The position numbers and the translations under genes were made by a program. The notes under the pieces were generated by a model that had not been told where the DNA came from, made no database searches, and was given only the letters and a program-made list of their open reading frames with translations. Shown here in pieces: positions 3,903 to 58,418 of a stretch of DNA of 64,000 nt. Source of the stretch: Candidatus Buchananbacteria bacterium CG10_big_fil_rev_8_21_14_0_10_33_19. GTDB taxonomy: Bacteria > Patescibacteriota > Patescibacteriia > 2-01-FULL-39-33. Numbering within the stretch: the first letter of the stretch is position 1; every line of letters begins with the position of its first letter. Where the stretch lies: positions 233,565 to 297,564 of the forward strand of contig PEZY01000012.1 in the NCBI GenBank assembly GCA_002773855.1, in the 5' to 3' direction.

Positions 3903-4910
3903 ATGTTTTTAAAAAGAATTGGAATCGATTTAGGCACGACCAATATTTTGGTGCATGTGCCCAAAAAAGGAGTAGTGATTAATGAGCCATCGGTAGTGGC
4001 TATTTCTAATGTGGATAAAAAAATTATTGCCGTTGGTGCTGAAGCCAAGGAAATGTTGGGACGGACTCCGGACACAATTATTGCTCAGCGACCACTGAAA
4101 GATGGCGTGATTGCTGACTACAAAACAACTGAAGCGATGCTTAGATATTTTATTAACAAAGCCTTGGGTGGTGTGCGAATATTTCGGCCCGAGGTGATGG
4201 TAGCGGTGCCAGCGGGTATTACTTCTACTGAAAGAAGAGCAGTCATTGATGCGACTATTGCCGCTGGTGCTAAAGCCGCTTATATTATTAAAGAACCAAT
4301 TGTGGCGGCTATTGGGGCTAATATTCCCATTGGTAGCGCTTCCGGACATATGATTATTGATATTGGTGGTGGGACTTCGGAAATTGCGGTGATATCACTT
4401 GGTGGCATTGTGTCTTCAACTTCTGTGAGAATTGGTGGTAATAAATTGGATGTAGCTATTACTGAAGGGATTAGAAAAAAATATGGTTTAGCGATTGGTG
4501 AGCGAACCGCCGAACAAGTGAAAATTAATATTGGTTCAGCCCTGTATTTAGAAGAAAAGCTTTATATGGATGTGCGGGGCCGTGATATGATTACTGGATT
4601 GCCAAAAACTATTGCGGTGTCATCTGATGATGTGACGGATTCCATTCAAGCGGAATTAGAAGGTATTAGTAGTGCGGTGAAAAATGTCTTGTATAAAACG
4701 CCACCAGAGCTATCAGCTGATGTCATCGATAAGGGGATTGTCATGTCTGGTGGGACTAGCTTGCTACGAAATATTGATAAAATGGTGTCTTTAAGTACGG
4801 GGGTATCGGCCTATGTAGCCGATGATGCCTTGTATTGTGTAGCTAAAGGTACAGGGATTGCGTTGGATAATTTGGAGAGTTATAAGAGGAGTATTTTGGC
4901 GACGAAGTAA
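3903..4910 (+). CDS. mreB: Rod shape-determining protein, MreB/Mbl actin-like ATPase (paralog 1)
   Basis: [14 protein letters not shown] phosphate-1 motif, DIGGGTSEIAV, GGTSLL, full length 335 aa. Confidence 0.9.
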   Translation: MFLKRIGIDLGTTNILVHVPKKGVVINEPSVVAISNVDKKIIAVGAEAKEMLGRTPDTIIAQRPLKDGVIADYKTTEAMLRYFINKALGGVRIFRPEVMVAVPAGITSTERRAVIDATIAAGAKAAYIIKEPIVAAIGANIPIGSASGHMIIDIGGGTSEIAVISLGGIVSSTSVRIGGNKLDVAITEGIRKKYGLAIGERTAEQVKINIGSALYLEEKLYMDVRGRDMITGLPKTIAVSSDDVTDSIQAELEGISSAVKNVLYKTPPELSADVIDKGIVMSGGTSLLRNIDKMVSLSTGVSAYVADDALYCVAKGTGIALDNLESYKRSILATK

Positions 4911-4990
4911 GTAATTAAAGTCTTGTTGCTTTTATAAATCGTCATTGCGAGGTACGAAGCAATCCCATGTTTATTTTACTAAATCACATT

Positions 4991-5037
4991 GGTACTTTTT
5001 TAGAAAAAGTACCACAAAAATCGCGACAGTAAAAAAT
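4991..5037 (+). repeat. GGTAC-palindrome intergenic repeat, copy 3
   Basis: ggtacttttt-tag-aaaaagtacc hairpin followed by acaaaaatcgcgacagtaaaaaat. Related to the copies at 5831-5878 and 42320-42357. Confidence 0.5.
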
Positions 5038-5245
5038 TTATAATCGAAGCTAAAACTTCGTCCTGCTAATTTTCAAAACTCGAAACTTTTCAATTTGTAA
5101 TTGTCGAAAGTTTCTCAAACATTGAAAATTTTGGGCGTAGACAACGCCCAATCGCTAGGGCTCTCGTTTTATCTTCTCCTTAAATTTTTAAATTGTCGCA
5201 TTTATTTTAAGTAGAATAATATAAATTATTAATTTTTAAATATTA

Positions 5246-5698
5246 ATGCAATTATTTGAGAGAAAATTTAAATGGTTTACTTATGCAGTAATTGGTTTGA
5301 TATATGATATTATCGGTACAATTTTTATTGCATTATTTTATCATCCTACAATAGTATATAGAGGAATGACAGTTGGTAATCTAAATGCCGTATTAGACAA
5401 TCCAGACCGTAGATGGTTGTATTATGGATTGATAACTATAATTTTAGGCTTTGTGTGTTTATTAGTTGATCAATTTATTGATATATATAAAATTAGAAAT
5501 AATATATCTAAATTTTTTTTGATAATTCTATCTTTACCATTGGTATTACTATTGGTACTAGTGTTTTTTGTAATGATACTGGTGTTGTTGTTTTTAATTT
5601 TTAGTGCTCTAATTGCCCATTCTATTTTTTTTATTTGTGTTATAGCAATTTTTAGTATTATATGTTTAGTATACTATTATCATAATCAGGTGTATTAA
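5246..5698 (+). CDS. Hypothetical polytopic membrane protein
   Basis: 150 aa, 4 predicted hydrophobic segments, no recognisable motif. Confidence 0.4.
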   Translation: MQLFERKFKWFTYAVIGLIYDIIGTIFIALFYHPTIVYRGMTVGNLNAVLDNPDRRWLYYGLITIILGFVCLLVDQFIDIYKIRNNISKFFLIILSLPLVLLLVLVFFVMILVLLFLIFSALIAHSIFFICVIAIFSIICLVYYYHNQVY

Positions 5699-5705
5699 TA
5701 ATTTT

Positions 5706-5751
5706 ATTATAAAAAATGCAAACATTAAAAAATATTGTGCCAATTTTATAT
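5706..5751 (+). repeat. 45-bp direct repeat A (ttat..aaaaaatgcaaacattaaaaaatattgtgccaattttatat), copy 1
   Basis: Near-identical copy at 42374-42419. Confidence 0.6.
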
Positions 5752-5830
5752 AAAGCGAGCGTTAAGAAGCCAATATTTTGTCGCTGTTTTGATTATTGGC
5801 TTTAGCGAGCTGATATAAAATTTGGCCATG

Positions 5831-5878
5831 ATTTTTTACGTTTGCGAGCTTTGCGGTACTTTGGCGGCCCAAAGTACC
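5831..5878 (-). repeat. GGTAC-palindrome intergenic repeat, copy 1 (inverted relative to copy 2)
   Basis: ggtactttgg-cggc-ccaaagtacc. The reverse complement of 5831-5878 matches 42320-42357 with few mismatches. Confidence 0.6.
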
Positions 5879-5961: not shown

Positions 5962-7071
5962 ATGAAAATCGGTATCGATGCTTCCCGCGCCAATAAACAG
6001 AACAAAACCGGAGTAGAATGGTATTCCTACCATTTAATTCAAGAATTAAAGAAAATCACTCCAGCTGATATTCAGGTTTTGTTGTATACCAATGAAAAAT
6101 TACAGGGTGGTTTAGAAAACTGTCCATCAAATTTTAAAGAAAGAGTTTTAAATTGGCCGCCAAAATATTTATGGACGCAAATTAGATTAGCTCTAGAATT
6201 ATTTTTAAATCCGCCAGATGCTTTGTTTGTCCCGGCTCATACGATTCCATTTTGGCCAATAACTCGTAAAACCAAAGTTTATGTGACAGTACATGATGTG
6301 GGCTTTAAGCGTTATCCAAACTTGTATAAAAAAATTCAATATTACTATCATGATTTAACTATGAAGGTGATTAAGCGACGAGCGGATAAGATAATTACTA
6401 TTTCGGATTTTTCTAAACAAGAAATTATGGATTTATATGGCGTGAAAGCCGAGAAGATCGTAGTGATTTCACTAGGCTATGATCGAGAAAAATATAATCA
6501 AGACGTGGTAGTAAGTCATGATATTTTAACTAAGTATAAAATTACTCAGCCCTATGTGTTGTATGTTGGTCGCCTAGAAAAAAAGAAAAATATCGGCAAT
6601 CTAGTCAAAGCTTTCGCTTATGCCAAAGCGTCTAATCATGACTTAAAATTAGTCTTAGCTGGCAATGCTGGCAATGAATACGAAGTGATAAAAAATATTA
6701 TCGCCGAGCATAAATTAGAAAACGAAATTATATTACCTGGTTATATTGCTGAAGTTGATTTGCCGGCAGTTATCAAAATGGCTGAAGTTTTTATGTTCCC
6801 AACTTTATATGAAGGTTTTGGTCTGCCAATTTTACAAGCGATGGCCGTGGGGACGCCAGTTATTACTTCTGATATCGAGCCACACCGGTCTATCTCAGGT
6901 GGCTGTGCTGTTTTGGTCAATCCAAAGAATTCAAAATATATGGCTCAACAAATTAATAAAATTATTAAAGATTGGGAATTTGCCAGTGATTTGAAATCCG
7001 CTGGCTTAGATCGAGTGCAATCATTTTCTTGGTCTAAAACCGCTCAGGACACTTTGGCAGTGATAAAATAA
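5962..7071 (+). CDS. Glycosyltransferase family 4 (GT-B, RfaG-like)
   Basis: KIGIDASRA... N-terminus and a C-terminal EGFGLP.LQAMA.G.PVI motif typical of GT4. Confidence 0.75.
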   Translation: MKIGIDASRANKQNKTGVEWYSYHLIQELKKITPADIQVLLYTNEKLQGGLENCPSNFKERVLNWPPKYLWTQIRLALELFLNPPDALFVPAHTIPFWPITRKTKVYVTVHDVGFKRYPNLYKKIQYYYHDLTMKVIKRRADKIITISDFSKQEIMDLYGVKAEKIVVISLGYDREKYNQDVVVSHDILTKYKITQPYVLYVGRLEKKKNIGNLVKAFAYAKASNHDLKLVLAGNAGNEYEVIKNIIAEHKLENEIILPGYIAEVDLPAVIKMAEVFMFPTLYEGFGLPILQAMAVGTPVITSDIEPHRSISGGCAVLVNPKNSKYMAQQINKIIKDWEFASDLKSAGLDRVQSFSWSKTAQDTLAVIK

Positions 7072-12788: not shown

Positions 12789-13826
12789 ATGTTCAAAAAA
12801 CTAACAAGAAAATTCAGTAAGGGTTTAGGTATTGATTTAGGTAGTACCAAAACTATGATCTATCAGCAAGATAGGGGTATTGTAGTTAATGAGTCCTCAA
12901 TAGTGGCAGTCAATAACCGCACCGATCAAATTTTAGCGGTAGGAGATGAAGCTAGAAGAATGATGGGTAAGACGCCACCTCATATTATTGCGACTGCACC
13001 ATTATACCATGGCATTATTTCTGATTTTGAAATTACCGAAAAAATGCTTAAATATTTGATGGATAAAGTGCGAGCCGGTAAGTTTGCTTTTTCGGCTAAA
13101 CCGAGAGTAGTAGTGGGTGTGCCGTTGGATTTAACTGAAGTAGAAAAAAAAGCGGTAGAAGATGTGGTGATGTCAGCTGGTTCTAGTCAGGTTAACTTGG
13201 TAGAGAATATTATGGCAGCGGCTGTGGGAGCTAGAATTCCAATTCAAGATCCGTCTGGTAATATGATTGTTAATTTAGGTGGTGGTCTAACCGAGATTGC
13301 GGTTATATCACTGGATGGTATTGTAAATTGGAAAGTCACCAGAACTGCTGGACTAAGTTTAGATAAGGATATTATTAAATTTGCTCGTGATGAGTTTAAT
13401 TTGGTTTTGGGCGAAATGGTAGCTGAAGATATTAAAAGAAAAATTGGTTCGGCTCTAGAATTAGAAGAACCAATTGAGATGCAAATGCGTGGTCGAGATG
13501 TAATGTCTGGATTGCCAAAAGAATTTGATATTAATGATATGCAAATTAGAGACGCTATGCATAAATCAATTCAACATATTTTAGATACAATTAAGGCGAC
13601 ACTAGAAACCACACCGCCAGAGTTGGTAGCTGATATTTATCAAAAAGGCATTATTTTAACCGGTGGCGTGGCTATGCTTAAAAATATCGATAAATTTATT
13701 GCTCAGGGTATTGAAATACCGGTGCACGTAGCCGACGACCCTCAAACTTGCACGGTTAGAGGCATGGGGGTAATTATTGAGGATGAGGTGTTACTGCAAG
13801 ATATATTGGTGCCATCATCTCAATAG
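12789..13826 (+). CDS. mreB: Rod shape-determining protein MreB (paralog 2, in the mre operon)
   Basis: GIDLGSTKT, NLGGGLTEIAV actin-fold motifs. Followed by mreC and mreD. Confidence 0.9.
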   Translation: MFKKLTRKFSKGLGIDLGSTKTMIYQQDRGIVVNESSIVAVNNRTDQILAVGDEARRMMGKTPPHIIATAPLYHGIISDFEITEKMLKYLMDKVRAGKFAFSAKPRVVVGVPLDLTEVEKKAVEDVVMSAGSSQVNLVENIMAAAVGARIPIQDPSGNMIVNLGGGLTEIAVISLDGIVNWKVTRTAGLSLDKDIIKFARDEFNLVLGEMVAEDIKRKIGSALELEEPIEMQMRGRDVMSGLPKEFDINDMQIRDAMHKSIQHILDTIKATLETTPPELVADIYQKGIILTGGVAMLKNIDKFIAQGIEIPVHVADDPQTCTVRGMGVIIEDEVLLQDILVPSSQ

Positions 13827-42214: not shown

Positions 42215-42319
42215 TTTAATGACATTTATAAAATGAACATAACATGGTATGTTCATTTTTTTTCTTATTACTTTTTGATAATAAAGTCTTTTTGTCCAAC
42301 TTCTTTGGTTTATTGTTAT

Positions 42320-42357
42320 GGTACTTTGGACCGCCAAAGTACCGCAAAGGTCGCAGG
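42320..42357 (+). repeat. GGTAC-palindrome intergenic repeat, copy 2
   Basis: ggtactttgg-accg-ccaaagtacc followed by gcaaaggtcgcagg. Confidence 0.6.
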
Positions 42358-42373
42358 TTTATGAAGATATTAT

Positions 42374-42419
42374 TTATTAAAAAATGCAAACATTAAAAAA
42401 TATTGTGCCAATTTTATAT
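42374..42419 (+). repeat. 45-bp direct repeat A, copy 2
   Basis: Near-identical to 5706-5751. Confidence 0.6.
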
Positions 42420-42443
42420 CAAAGAAAATGTCTAGAGATATCT

Positions 42444-43286
42444 CTAGACATTTTTTATTACCAGTAATCTATCTTTCCCACATAAATCTTTTTTGATAGT
42501 TATTTTAGCTTGAGGAAAGTATGATTTAGTTAAGGCTAAGGTTTTTTTGACATAGGTCGAGCCAATCTCACAAAACAGCCATTGAGGTTTATAATTTAAA
42601 TTGTTTATTTGAATAAATAATTTTTCATAAACGTCTAAGCCGTATTTACCACCGTATAAGGCTTGAGCCGGTTCATATTTAAGTGGGGCGGTGTAAATAT
42701 TTTTTAATTTTTTTTCACCAGTTGGCACGTAAGGTAGGTTGGTTATGATAATGTCTATTTTATCTGTTATGTTTTTAATTAAATCATTTTTAATAAATTT
42801 AATATTTACCTTATTAAGTCTGGCGTTTGTCTGAGACAGTTTAATAGCTGATAGGGAAATATCAGTAGCCATGACATTAAGTTGAGGTAGGTTTTTTTTG
42901 AGAGTAATAGCAATGGCGCCAGAACCAGTACCAATATCAGCAACAGTAATATTTTTATTACCAATTGTTTTGATAAATTCATCAATTAATAATTCAGTTT
43001 CTGGGCGGGGGATTAAGACATTTTTGTTGACTATAAAATCCAAACCGTAAAATTCTTTTTGGCCAACTAGATAGGCTAGGGGCTCGAATTTTTGTCTCCT
43101 AGTGATTGATGATTGGTATTTTTTTGCTTGGCCTTTGGTTATTTTTTTGTCGGGATTGGTAATAATGTATTCTTTGGATTTATTTAAAACATACATCATT
43201 AAAACTTCAGCATCTAGTACGGCTGAAGGTATTTTAGCTTGCTTTAATTTATTAGCACCCTTTCTGGTGATTTCAATAAGTGTCAT
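42444..43286 (-). CDS. prmC: Release factor glutamine N5-methyltransferase PrmC (HemK)
   Basis: VADIGTGSGAIAI SAM motif, NLPY(V) catalytic motif. Downstream of prfA. Confidence 0.85.
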   Translation of the reverse strand: MTLIEITRKGANKLKQAKIPSAVLDAEVLMMYVLNKSKEYIITNPDKKITKGQAKKYQSSITRRQKFEPLAYLVGQKEFYGLDFIVNKNVLIPRPETELLIDEFIKTIGNKNITVADIGTGSGAIAITLKKNLPQLNVMATDISLSAIKLSQTNARLNKVNIKFIKNDLIKNITDKIDIIITNLPYVPTGEKKLKNIYTAPLKYEPAQALYGGKYGLDVYEKLFIQINNLNYKPQWLFCEIGSTYVKKTLALTKSYFPQAKITIKKDLCGKDRLLVIKNV

Positions 43287-56729: not shown

Positions 56730-58418
56730 ATGAATCAAGAAGAAACTTTGAATGAGATAACTTTGTTTGGCGAAACTAATTTTCGCAATCAAAAAAAGCG
56801 TTTTGGTATTAAACGTGATGACCGAAGACGCCATGTTTATATTATCGGTAAAACTGGTATGGGTAAGACTACTTTATTAGAAAATATGATAATTTCTGAT
56901 ATTGTCAATGGTGATGGTTGTTGCTATGTTGATCCCCATGGTGATACGGCTGAAAAGATATTAGATTTTATTCCTCCTAGCAGAATTAATGATGTTATTT
57001 ATTTTAACCCAGCAGATACCGAATTTCCCATTGCTTTTAATATATTAGAAGCCGTTGATGAAAAAAGTAAGCATTTAATTGCTTCTGGATTAGTTGGCGT
57101 GTTTAAGAAGCAATTTGCTGATAGTTGGGGACCAAGATTAGAATATATTTTGCGTAACGCTATTTTAGCTTTATTGGATTATCCGGGTAGTACTCTATTG
57201 GGTATTATGAGAATTTTAGTTGACAATAGTTATCGTGAGAAGGTGGTTGAAAAAATTACCGATCCAGTAGTTAAATCTTTTTGGGTCAATGAGTATACTA
57301 AATGGAATGATAGAACATTACAAGAGGTAATATCTCCAATTCAAAACAAGGTTGGTCAGTTTTTGTCTAATTTTTTAATTAGGAATATTGTTGGTCAGGT
57401 GAAGTCAACTTTTGATTTGCGCGAAGTTATTGATGGTCGAAAAATATTAATTATGAATTTATCCAAGGGTAGGATTGGCGAGGACACGATGCAACTTTTA
57501 GGTTCGATGATTGTGACTAAACTGTATTTAGCGGCCATGAGTCGCGTTGATATACCAGAGAAAGATCGAAAAGACTTTTATTTGTATGTTGATGAATTTC
57601 AAAATTTTGCTACTGACAGTTTTGCTGATATTTTATCAGAGGCTAGAAAATATCGACTTAATTTGACCATGGCTCACCAATTTATTGAGCAGTTACCAGA
57701 AACCGTTTCGGCTTCAGTGTTTGGTAATGTGGGTACTTTGTTATGTTTTCGAGTTGGCGCAGCCGATGCAGAAAAGCTAGTGAAGGAGTTTACGCCAATA
57801 TTTTTAGAAGAAGATTTAGTTAATTTGCCAGCTTTTAGTATTTATTTAAAGTTAATGATTGATGGTGTTTCATCTGATCCATTTTCGGCTAATACTTTAC
57901 CGCCATTATTTGATGAGTATAGATCAAATAGCACTGAAAGAGTGGTTAAAGTTTCTCGAGAAAGGTATGCTAATCATCGTAAATCCATAGAAGATAAAAT
58001 AAATCGTTGGAGTGGTATGGATTTAAGTGAAAAAATGATAGCCACTAGCGAAGGGCATGTTAATTTTAAGTCAGAAAGAGATAAGCAGATTAAGACACAA
58101 CACAGAACATCAGTAGACAATAAATTTACCAAGCCTAAGCCCAAGGAGGACAAAAAATTAGAAGAAAAATACATTGTAGATTGTTTTTCTTGTGGTAAAA
58201 CTGCCGAAATTAATTTTTTTCCTGATGGCAAGCGTCCAGTTTTTTGTAAAGATTGTTTGGTTAAGAGCCGACAAGATAGGCAAATTAAAAATAACGCAAC
58301 AGACAAAGCGGTGTCACCAAAAATTGCAACAAAAATTTTAGAACAACCACAAGAGGCTGTACAGACTATCAGTTTGGCTGACTTGGGTAAAAGATCGGAG
58401 ACGCCGAATAATAAATAG
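56730..58418 (+). CDS. TrwB/TraD/VirD4-family (type IV coupling protein-like) P-loop ATPase, soluble, with a C-terminal Cys4 zinc ribbon
   Basis: Walker A IIGKTGMGKTT followed by CYVDPHGD (TrwB-like), Walker B YLYVDEFQNF, RKYRLNLTMAHQ arginine/Gln motif. C-terminal CFSCGK...CKDCL. Confidence 0.6.
   Translation: MNQEETLNEITLFGETNFRNQKKRFGIKRDDRRRHVYIIGKTGMGKTTLLENMIISDIVNGDGCCYVDPHGDTAEKILDFIPPSRINDVIYFNPADTEFPIAFNILEAVDEKSKHLIASGLVGVFKKQFADSWGPRLEYILRNAILALLDYPGSTLLGIMRILVDNSYREKVVEKITDPVVKSFWVNEYTKWNDRTLQEVISPIQNKVGQFLSNFLIRNIVGQVKSTFDLREVIDGRKILIMNLSKGRIGEDTMQLLGSMIVTKLYLAAMSRVDIPEKDRKDFYLYVDEFQNFATDSFADILSEARKYRLNLTMAHQFIEQLPETVSASVFGNVGTLLCFRVGAADAEKLVKEFTPIFLEEDLVNLPAFSIYLKLMIDGVSSDPFSANTLPPLFDEYRSNSTERVVKVSRERYANHRKSIEDKINRWSGMDLSEKMIATSEGHVNFKSERDKQIKTQHRTSVDNKFTKPKPKEDKKLEEKYIVDCFSCGKTAEINFFPDGKRPVFCKDCLVKSRQDRQIKNNATDKAVSPKIATKILEQPQEAVQTISLADLGKRSETPNNK

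Follow-up and report, generated by a model that had tools for sequence, protein, structure and literature searches.

The window, by which we mean the whole 64,000-nucleotide stretch analysed (G+C ~33%), holds three GGTAC...GTACC hairpins, here called copies A, B and C, all of them intergenic. By exact protein look-up, the window is assigned to a candidate-phyla-radiation bacterium that goes under the name of Candidatus Falkowbacteria or Buchananbacteria. Copy A lies 80 nt after mreB (3903–4910), copy B precedes a glycosyltransferase gene (5962–7071) by 84 nt, and copy C falls between convergent genes, with canonical terminators on its two sides (42234–42265 and 42425–42454). Searching with GGTACTTTGGNNCGCCAAAGTACC at up to 3 mismatches matched 5855–5878 and 42320–42343, and the same search of 100 shuffles gave 0 matches. 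The loop of copy A differs from that of B and C; it was picked up by a relaxed structural scan, which returned only A, B and C across the 64 kb, plus a weak candidate at 57654 on the minus strand. An earlier note on this DNA had described these hairpins as a dispersed intergenic family. They are present at 4991–5013, 5855–5878 and 42320–42343, are not expected by chance, and are confirmed as dispersed and intergenic throughout.

The surroundings hold further features. An open reading frame of 150 aa (5246–5698, plus strand), hydrophobic and membrane-like, lies exactly between A and B. A Pfam search with it found no family, and a related organism's contig (L051) carries an A-like/B-like pair with the reading frame absent; the frame may have been inserted, or may encode a small membrane protein specific to the lineage. 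A second type of repeat hairpin, CGTCATTGCGAGG-N-CGAAGCAATC, occupies 4940–4966, 25 nt from copy A. Its variants GTCATTCTGAACGAAGTGAAGAATC and GTCATCTCGAGGGGGTTCACCCCGAGAGATC adjoin structured elements in many loci, and besides the window the type occurs in L029, L052, L057, L019, L002, L005, L006 and L114. Two MreB paralogues lie in the window (3903–4910 and the region of 13422–13520; repeat family D1, 71% identity over 99 nt), the second mreB being followed by mreC on the source contig. A diversity-generating retroelement (bAvd plus reverse transcriptase; L032, 3178–4562) lies ~5–6 kb upstream of window position 1, and a relaxed scan of the 10 kb containing it did not find the hairpin module.

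Anatomy of the three copies

The hairpins are the ends of larger elements. We list the parts on the strand that we favour.

Element A, span 4991–5199
4991–5013, minus: end hairpin GGTACTTTTTTAGAAAAAGTACC, GGTAC-T6-AG-A5-GTACC, with a 10-bp stem
5014–5022, minus: linker, AC plus A5 on the plus strand and UUUUU-GU on the minus strand
5023–5199, minus: body, closing helix 5023–5040 / 5181–5199
~5067–5076 / 5122–5130: inner helix enclosing AACTC (5077–5081), a hairpin and TCAAACA (5115–5121)
5045–5062 and 5131–5151: further hairpins

Element B, span 5718–5878
5718–5845, plus: body, closing helix 5718–5751 / 5813–5845 around a hairpin with two flanking GCGAGC motifs
5846–5878, plus: end module, GAGC, TTT, GC and then the hairpin
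5855–5878, plus: end hairpin, inverted relative to that of A, GGTACTTTGG-CGGC-CCAAAGTACC

Copy C
42320–42343, minus: end hairpin, loop GACC
42320–42357, minus: end module, linker GC plus AAA plus G, then GGTC (42349–42352), complementary to the loop GACC
42369–42422, minus: closing-helix remnant, a B-type strand, 42379–42419 being identical to 5711–5751

The direct repeat described in the earlier note is exact over 41 nt (5711–5751 and 42379–42419; 0 expected by chance) and extends to 54 nt at 91% identity (5701–5754 / 42369–42422; repeat family D11). The claim that this 45-bp sequence is unrelated to the hairpins did not hold up: 5718–5751 pairs with 5813–5845, and in the predicted fold the repeat is one strand of the closing helix of copy B. 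Copy C, from which the partner strand and the body are absent, is a partial B-like copy lying between two canonical terminators. Repeat and hairpin appear flipped there because 42379–42419 is the hairpin-proximal helix strand of this partial copy.

Elements A and B are mutually inverted yet of different body types, and on both strands they fold far more strongly than shuffles (z −5.7 to −8.7). For A, the MFE is −67.5 on the strand read in the earlier note (the first-read strand below) and −65.1 on the opposite strand, its two folds having z values between −5.7 and −8.7; for B it is −59.3 on the plus strand and −53.6 on the minus strand, with z ~ −6. The linker run of A is as long as the series of five U-A pairs in its stem, and B has three T in the linker and three U-A pairs in the stem. 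Loop pairing is absent from the class of A (loop TAG) and weak in B, where it occurs only on the first-read strand and includes one G.U. Homologues of A show compensatory changes in the body (L058, L051, L135, L057 and L029), and its hairpin is identical in L051, L058, L135 and L044 and near-identical in Saccharibacteria L025, with a loop one T longer. L051 also carries a B-like homologue.

Rules kept across lineages

We searched for the module elsewhere, using the pattern GGTACTTT-N8-AAAGTACC-RCAAA for species genomes and a looser scan for metagenomes. These collection scans yielded 31 and at least 114 loci, respectively, and demanded GGTAC, so that locus counts and taxon spread are biased. 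The 31 loci fall in Gastranaerophilales/Melainabacteria (many copies, often at contig ends), Saccharibacteria and other Patescibacteria, as well as one Parapedobacter isolate and MAGs labelled Muribaculaceae or Gammaproteobacteria. The looser scan gave 0 matches in 2.9 million viral contigs, and the plasmids and phages searched gave none. In the Parapedobacter isolate (sp. DT-150, L001 4960–5423, minus strand) a G+C-rich region of ~450 nt follows the hairpin and ends in GCGATCAAAAGTATC, which is able to pair with the 5' strand and loop of the hairpin; this locus may be a much larger family member or a case of alternative long-range pairing.

Described on the first-read strand, the order of parts is hairpin, linker, loop-complementary segment, closing helix and body. 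The stem has 8–14 bp, its upper part being a pyrimidine run paired to a purine run, and its lower 4–6 bp vary with compensation (GGTAC, GATAC, GTTAC, GCCAC, GTCAC, GCTCC and others). One or two nucleotides past the stem, the stem's purine run is repeated in mirror image. The A-runs of linker and stem are equal in length in 75 of 106 distinct modules (r = 0.77). Where G residues interrupt the run asymmetrically, their positions too are mirrored, in six or more lineages and in stretches of as much as 10–11 nt. Examples are AAGAAA against AAAGAA in L072/L104, AAAGAA against AAGAAA in L080, and L066; the mirrored stretch reaches 10–11 nt in L149 and 11 nt in L051. Lower stem and linker together come to ~7 nt, as 5+2, 6+1 or 4+3, in 88 of 165 modules.

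The 4–8 nt that follow can pair with the hairpin loop, and this complementarity is kept through many compensatory changes. The best Watson-Crick helix between loop and tail averages 3.69 bp, compared with 2.72 ± 0.08 when tails were permuted among sequences (1000 permutations, maximum 2.99; z ~11). Many distinct helices of at least 5 bp occur, among them CTTGACC/GGTCAAG, GTGCTC/GAGCAC and GGCAG/CTGCC. Pairing of the loop with a flanking strand, as in an H-type pseudoknot, is thus predicted from the sequences for the family outside the class of copy A, and weakly for copy B. A long-range closing helix encloses the body, the core of which in many lineages is AACUC-hairpin-UCARACA inside a freely covarying helix. 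Internal helices covary across phyla; the formal per-pair counts cover the inner helices and the hairpin only, the closing helix being misaligned by MAFFT.

The earlier note had seen in part of this a conserved tail. Conserved it is, but it is no mere tail, consisting of the mirrored linker, the loop-complementary segment and a strand of the long helix. The mirrored linker, the loop–tail pairing and the body, which brings elements to 130–230 nt, had gone unremarked. The hairpins and the 45-bp repeat together represent one widespread and so far uncatalogued family of folded small elements, and the window copies very probably belong to this one conserved structured family. Searching all 4227 Rfam families at the gathering threshold (including SAM-II, SAM-V, preQ1-I/II/III, pistol, HEARO, IS605-orfB, group I/II introns, 6S, SRP and RNase P) matched tRNAs alone in the window and 16 loci, and E-value searches of three element regions returned miRNA, snoRNA and DicF matches at chance level and nothing else. 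No account of the element turned up in the literature, whether searched by sequence or by topic.

Strand and proposed fold

The mirror rule is compatible with a triple helix on either strand. On the first-read strand a purine third strand would run antiparallel to the purine strand of the stem; on the opposite strand a pyrimidine third strand would run parallel to it, with U for each A-U pair and C for each G-C pair. We think it probable that the opposite strand, with the module at the 3' end, is the right one. Its U.A-U and C+.G-C triples are known in natural RNAs (PMC7583470), which argues in its favour. So does the core, where the core motif and the UC/UC variants in the inner hairpin become tandem G.A pairs on the opposite strand and are tandem U.C mismatches on the first-read strand. 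In H-type pseudoknots, 1–2 nt can cross the deep groove over 5–6 bp, but not the shallow groove. The ~7 nt of lower stem plus linker fit the deep-groove crossing, and a 1–2-nt linker on the first-read strand would be unable to span 5 bp of shallow groove. The opposite strand is also favoured by −10-like boxes that precede the closing helix by 6–8 nt in three elements from Saccharibacteria (L025) and by a palindromic TTATTATAATAA between a divergent pair in L051. Moreover, the hairpin end is often separated from an adjacent coding region by 4–50 nt, or comes immediately behind that region's terminator; this tolerance again points to the opposite strand, since a promoter for the first-read strand would have no room there. 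Copy B and the Gastranaerophilales group have better folds on the opposite strand.

Several comparisons were neutral. Counts of G.U against A.C in the pseudoknot and two inner helices were balanced and did not separate the strands, RNAalifold on both strands gave a mixed outcome by group, and the density of terminators, compared for both sides and both strands, did not fix the strand. Sigma-70 promoter scans of the window, which is AT-rich DNA, gave matches no commoner than in shuffles.

Read on the first-read strand, the same family would have a 5'-terminal hairpin, a minor-groove A-rich linker and a loop–tail pseudoknot, in a layout like that of preQ1-I; the body would come next, the closing helix and a U-rich run would end the RNA, and A and B would be convergent genes. 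Downstream of their closing helices, A and B do have U-rich runs, and downstream of C stands a canonical terminator. Pairs that converge on this strand across very short spacers recur (the window, L051, L080, L114, L025 and L063). One closing helix (L058) contains G.U only on this strand, which also gives copy A its slightly stronger fold and is required by the pseudoknot of copy B. We nevertheless hold this reading to be unlikely, in view of the groove geometry, the missing promoter space and the U.C mismatches described above. It would also need a purine third strand, which, as Semerad and Maher reportedly found in 1994, is not known to form an RNA triplex.

We therefore return to the opposite strand and propose, with a probability of roughly 0.6 for the statement as a whole, strand included, that the family is one of structured small RNAs with a 3' triple-helix pseudoknot. 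A and B would be complete members and C a partial one, the elements (~130–230 nt) most likely being independently transcribed non-coding RNAs read on the minus strand for A, the plus strand for B and the minus strand for C, the reverse of the first reading. Each RNA would run from the 5' strand of the closing helix through the body and the 3' strand of that helix to a 3'-terminal module, and the internal loop of the body would read UGUYUGA-hairpin-GAGUU, giving tandem G.A. The module would be X'(4–8 nt)-U(n)-G-N-[NNUAC-U(n)-loop-A(n)-GUANN]. In it, X' would pair with the hairpin loop, the U run would occupy the stem's major groove, oriented parallel to the A run and forming U.A-U and C+.G-C triples, and the purine strand would form the 3' terminus. 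It is this predicted terminal position that leads us to a tentative guess, made by analogy with the MALAT1/ENE triple helix, that the module may bury the 3' end and shield a stable RNA from 3'-exonucleases.

Similar known structures and rival identities

The predicted topology on the favoured strand, X'-U(n)-G-N-[stem 5'-loop-stem 3'], is by analogy that of the telomerase RNA pseudoknot, SAM-II/V and preQ1-II. In telomerase RNA (vertebrate P2b–P3 and the ciliate and yeast equivalents), as proposed here, a U-rich loop 1 and a short linker meet the major groove of stem 2, whose distal 5–6 bp are crossed by 2–3 nt. All of these H-type pseudoknots contain major-groove triplexes (PMC7583470; PMC13541005), and telomerase loop 1 forms U.A-U triples with the junction-proximal A-U pairs of stem 2 (PMC7583470). 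Unlike telomerase RNA, the element is bacterial, with no evident reverse transcriptase or template, lacks the A-rich loop 3, and has as its stem 2 a simple 10–14-bp hairpin at the element end; it has up to 10–11 mirrored positions, compared with ~3–5 triples in telomerase RNA. In SAM-II, SAM-V and preQ1-II the nucleotides of the ligand pocket are conserved, the riboswitch belongs to the 5' leader of particular genes, and canonical triples number only ~2, whereas here the sequence is free, the mirror rule alone is kept, gene context is random and the Rfam models are unmatched. The ENE/MALAT1-type 3'-end triple helix resembles the proposed module in that two U strands, one Watson-Crick and one Hoogsteen, clamp an A-rich 3' segment, and in 3'-end protection, which for our module is a guess. 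It is eukaryotic and viral, however, and both of its U-rich strands belong to the internal loop of a stem, with no pseudoknot loop contributing. RNA triplex reviews give no bacterial example of this type (PMC7583470, PMC13541005).

Placement after stop codons, together with the ligand binding of SAM-II/V and preQ1-II, which are H-type triplex pseudoknots, could suggest that neighbouring genes are controlled by terminators, attenuators or a SAM-II-like riboswitch. We give this idea almost no weight. On both strands the T-rich side of the stem is 5' and the A-rich side 3', and the hairpin has no U-tract behind it, which rejects an intrinsic (Rho-independent) terminator; the earlier note was right that these are not classical terminators, and separate canonical ones stand beside copy C. 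Its terminator- or attenuator-like family is unsupported on the same ground and on two others: element orientation relative to flanking genes is random, and the neighbouring genes are unrelated. A gene start lies within 130 nt of the element in only 24 of 138 cases, overlap with the ribosome-binding site is inconsistent, and the module, which has no Rfam match, keeps structure and not nucleotides. A riboswitch in the 5' leader of related genes is likewise unsupported by position, gene context or orientation. CRISPR repeats, attC sites, LexA and BirA operators, and also tRNA-like minihelices, SRP, 5S, 6S, omega and bridge RNAs, were rejected for an absent associated protein, a misfitting motif or a negative Rfam search.

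A mobile repeat acting as DNA, whether a MITE, a REP, a PATE-like element or a recombination site folding as single-stranded DNA, would account for other features. Like REP/BIME, MITE and IS200/IS605-derived palindromes, the elements are dispersed, intergenic and palindromic, and one Gastranaerophilales MAG has at least 10 near-identical copies, which break contigs and are often at contig ends. Truncated copies always retain the hairpin end (L014, L039, L057 and window copy C), a 41-nt stretch is 100% identical between two window loci, and DNA permits both triplex motifs. Against this stands the clustering of neighbouring proteins at 141 loci, which revealed no recurrent family and no transposase or integrase; no RAYT or TnpA partner was seen near the elements, and viral contigs, plasmids and phages had no matches. 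The three window copies diverge strongly in sequence within 64 kb yet keep their structure, which speaks against REP/REPIN; the REP/MITE behaviour suggested earlier is not supported in this genome. A pseudoknot, a mirror repeat and a covarying body of 100–200 nt further set the elements apart from these palindromes, as transposon terminal repeats do not require the cross-phylum covariation of internal helices found here. We judge a DNA-level mobile repeat very unlikely. From the earlier two-motif reading, the idea of two separate motifs falls, and its small-RNA option remains and fits the triple-helix pseudoknot RNA that we prefer.

The copy patterns can also be viewed with such an RNA in mind. 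On the 1061-bp contig L057, three modules stand in tandem (GTCAC.., GGTAC.. and GTTAC..), ~150 nt before and after the GGTAC hairpin, and a full body is attached to the last one only, so that the other two have the look of remnants that piled up at the hairpin end. Retention of the hairpin end could reflect decay, paralogue recombination or copying from that end. Taken together, truncated copies with the hairpin end, tandem remnants and the copy burst would point to reverse-transcriptase-dependent, SINE-like mobility. The broadest version, in which small RNAs of several phyla (Patescibacteria, Melainabacteria and some Bacteroidota) are 3'-capped by a telomerase/ENE-like triple-helix pseudoknot and copied from the 3' end in SINE-like fashion, strikes us as doubtful. 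To our knowledge, bacterial RNA triple helices are so far limited to riboswitch pockets and group II introns. If true, the 3'-cap reading would provide the first 3'-terminal RNA triple helix in bacteria.

Should the finding be wrong, the window has just a small family of intergenic repeats, unusually structured. Otherwise, a sequence-free module following a mirror rule, with up to ~10 triples at more than 100 loci in several phyla, would constitute a natural triplex that is new and easy to test. Its rule of hairpin, mirrored run and loop complement is usable as a search descriptor, and the module would offer a way into the almost unknown repertoire of non-coding RNAs in candidate-phyla-radiation bacteria.
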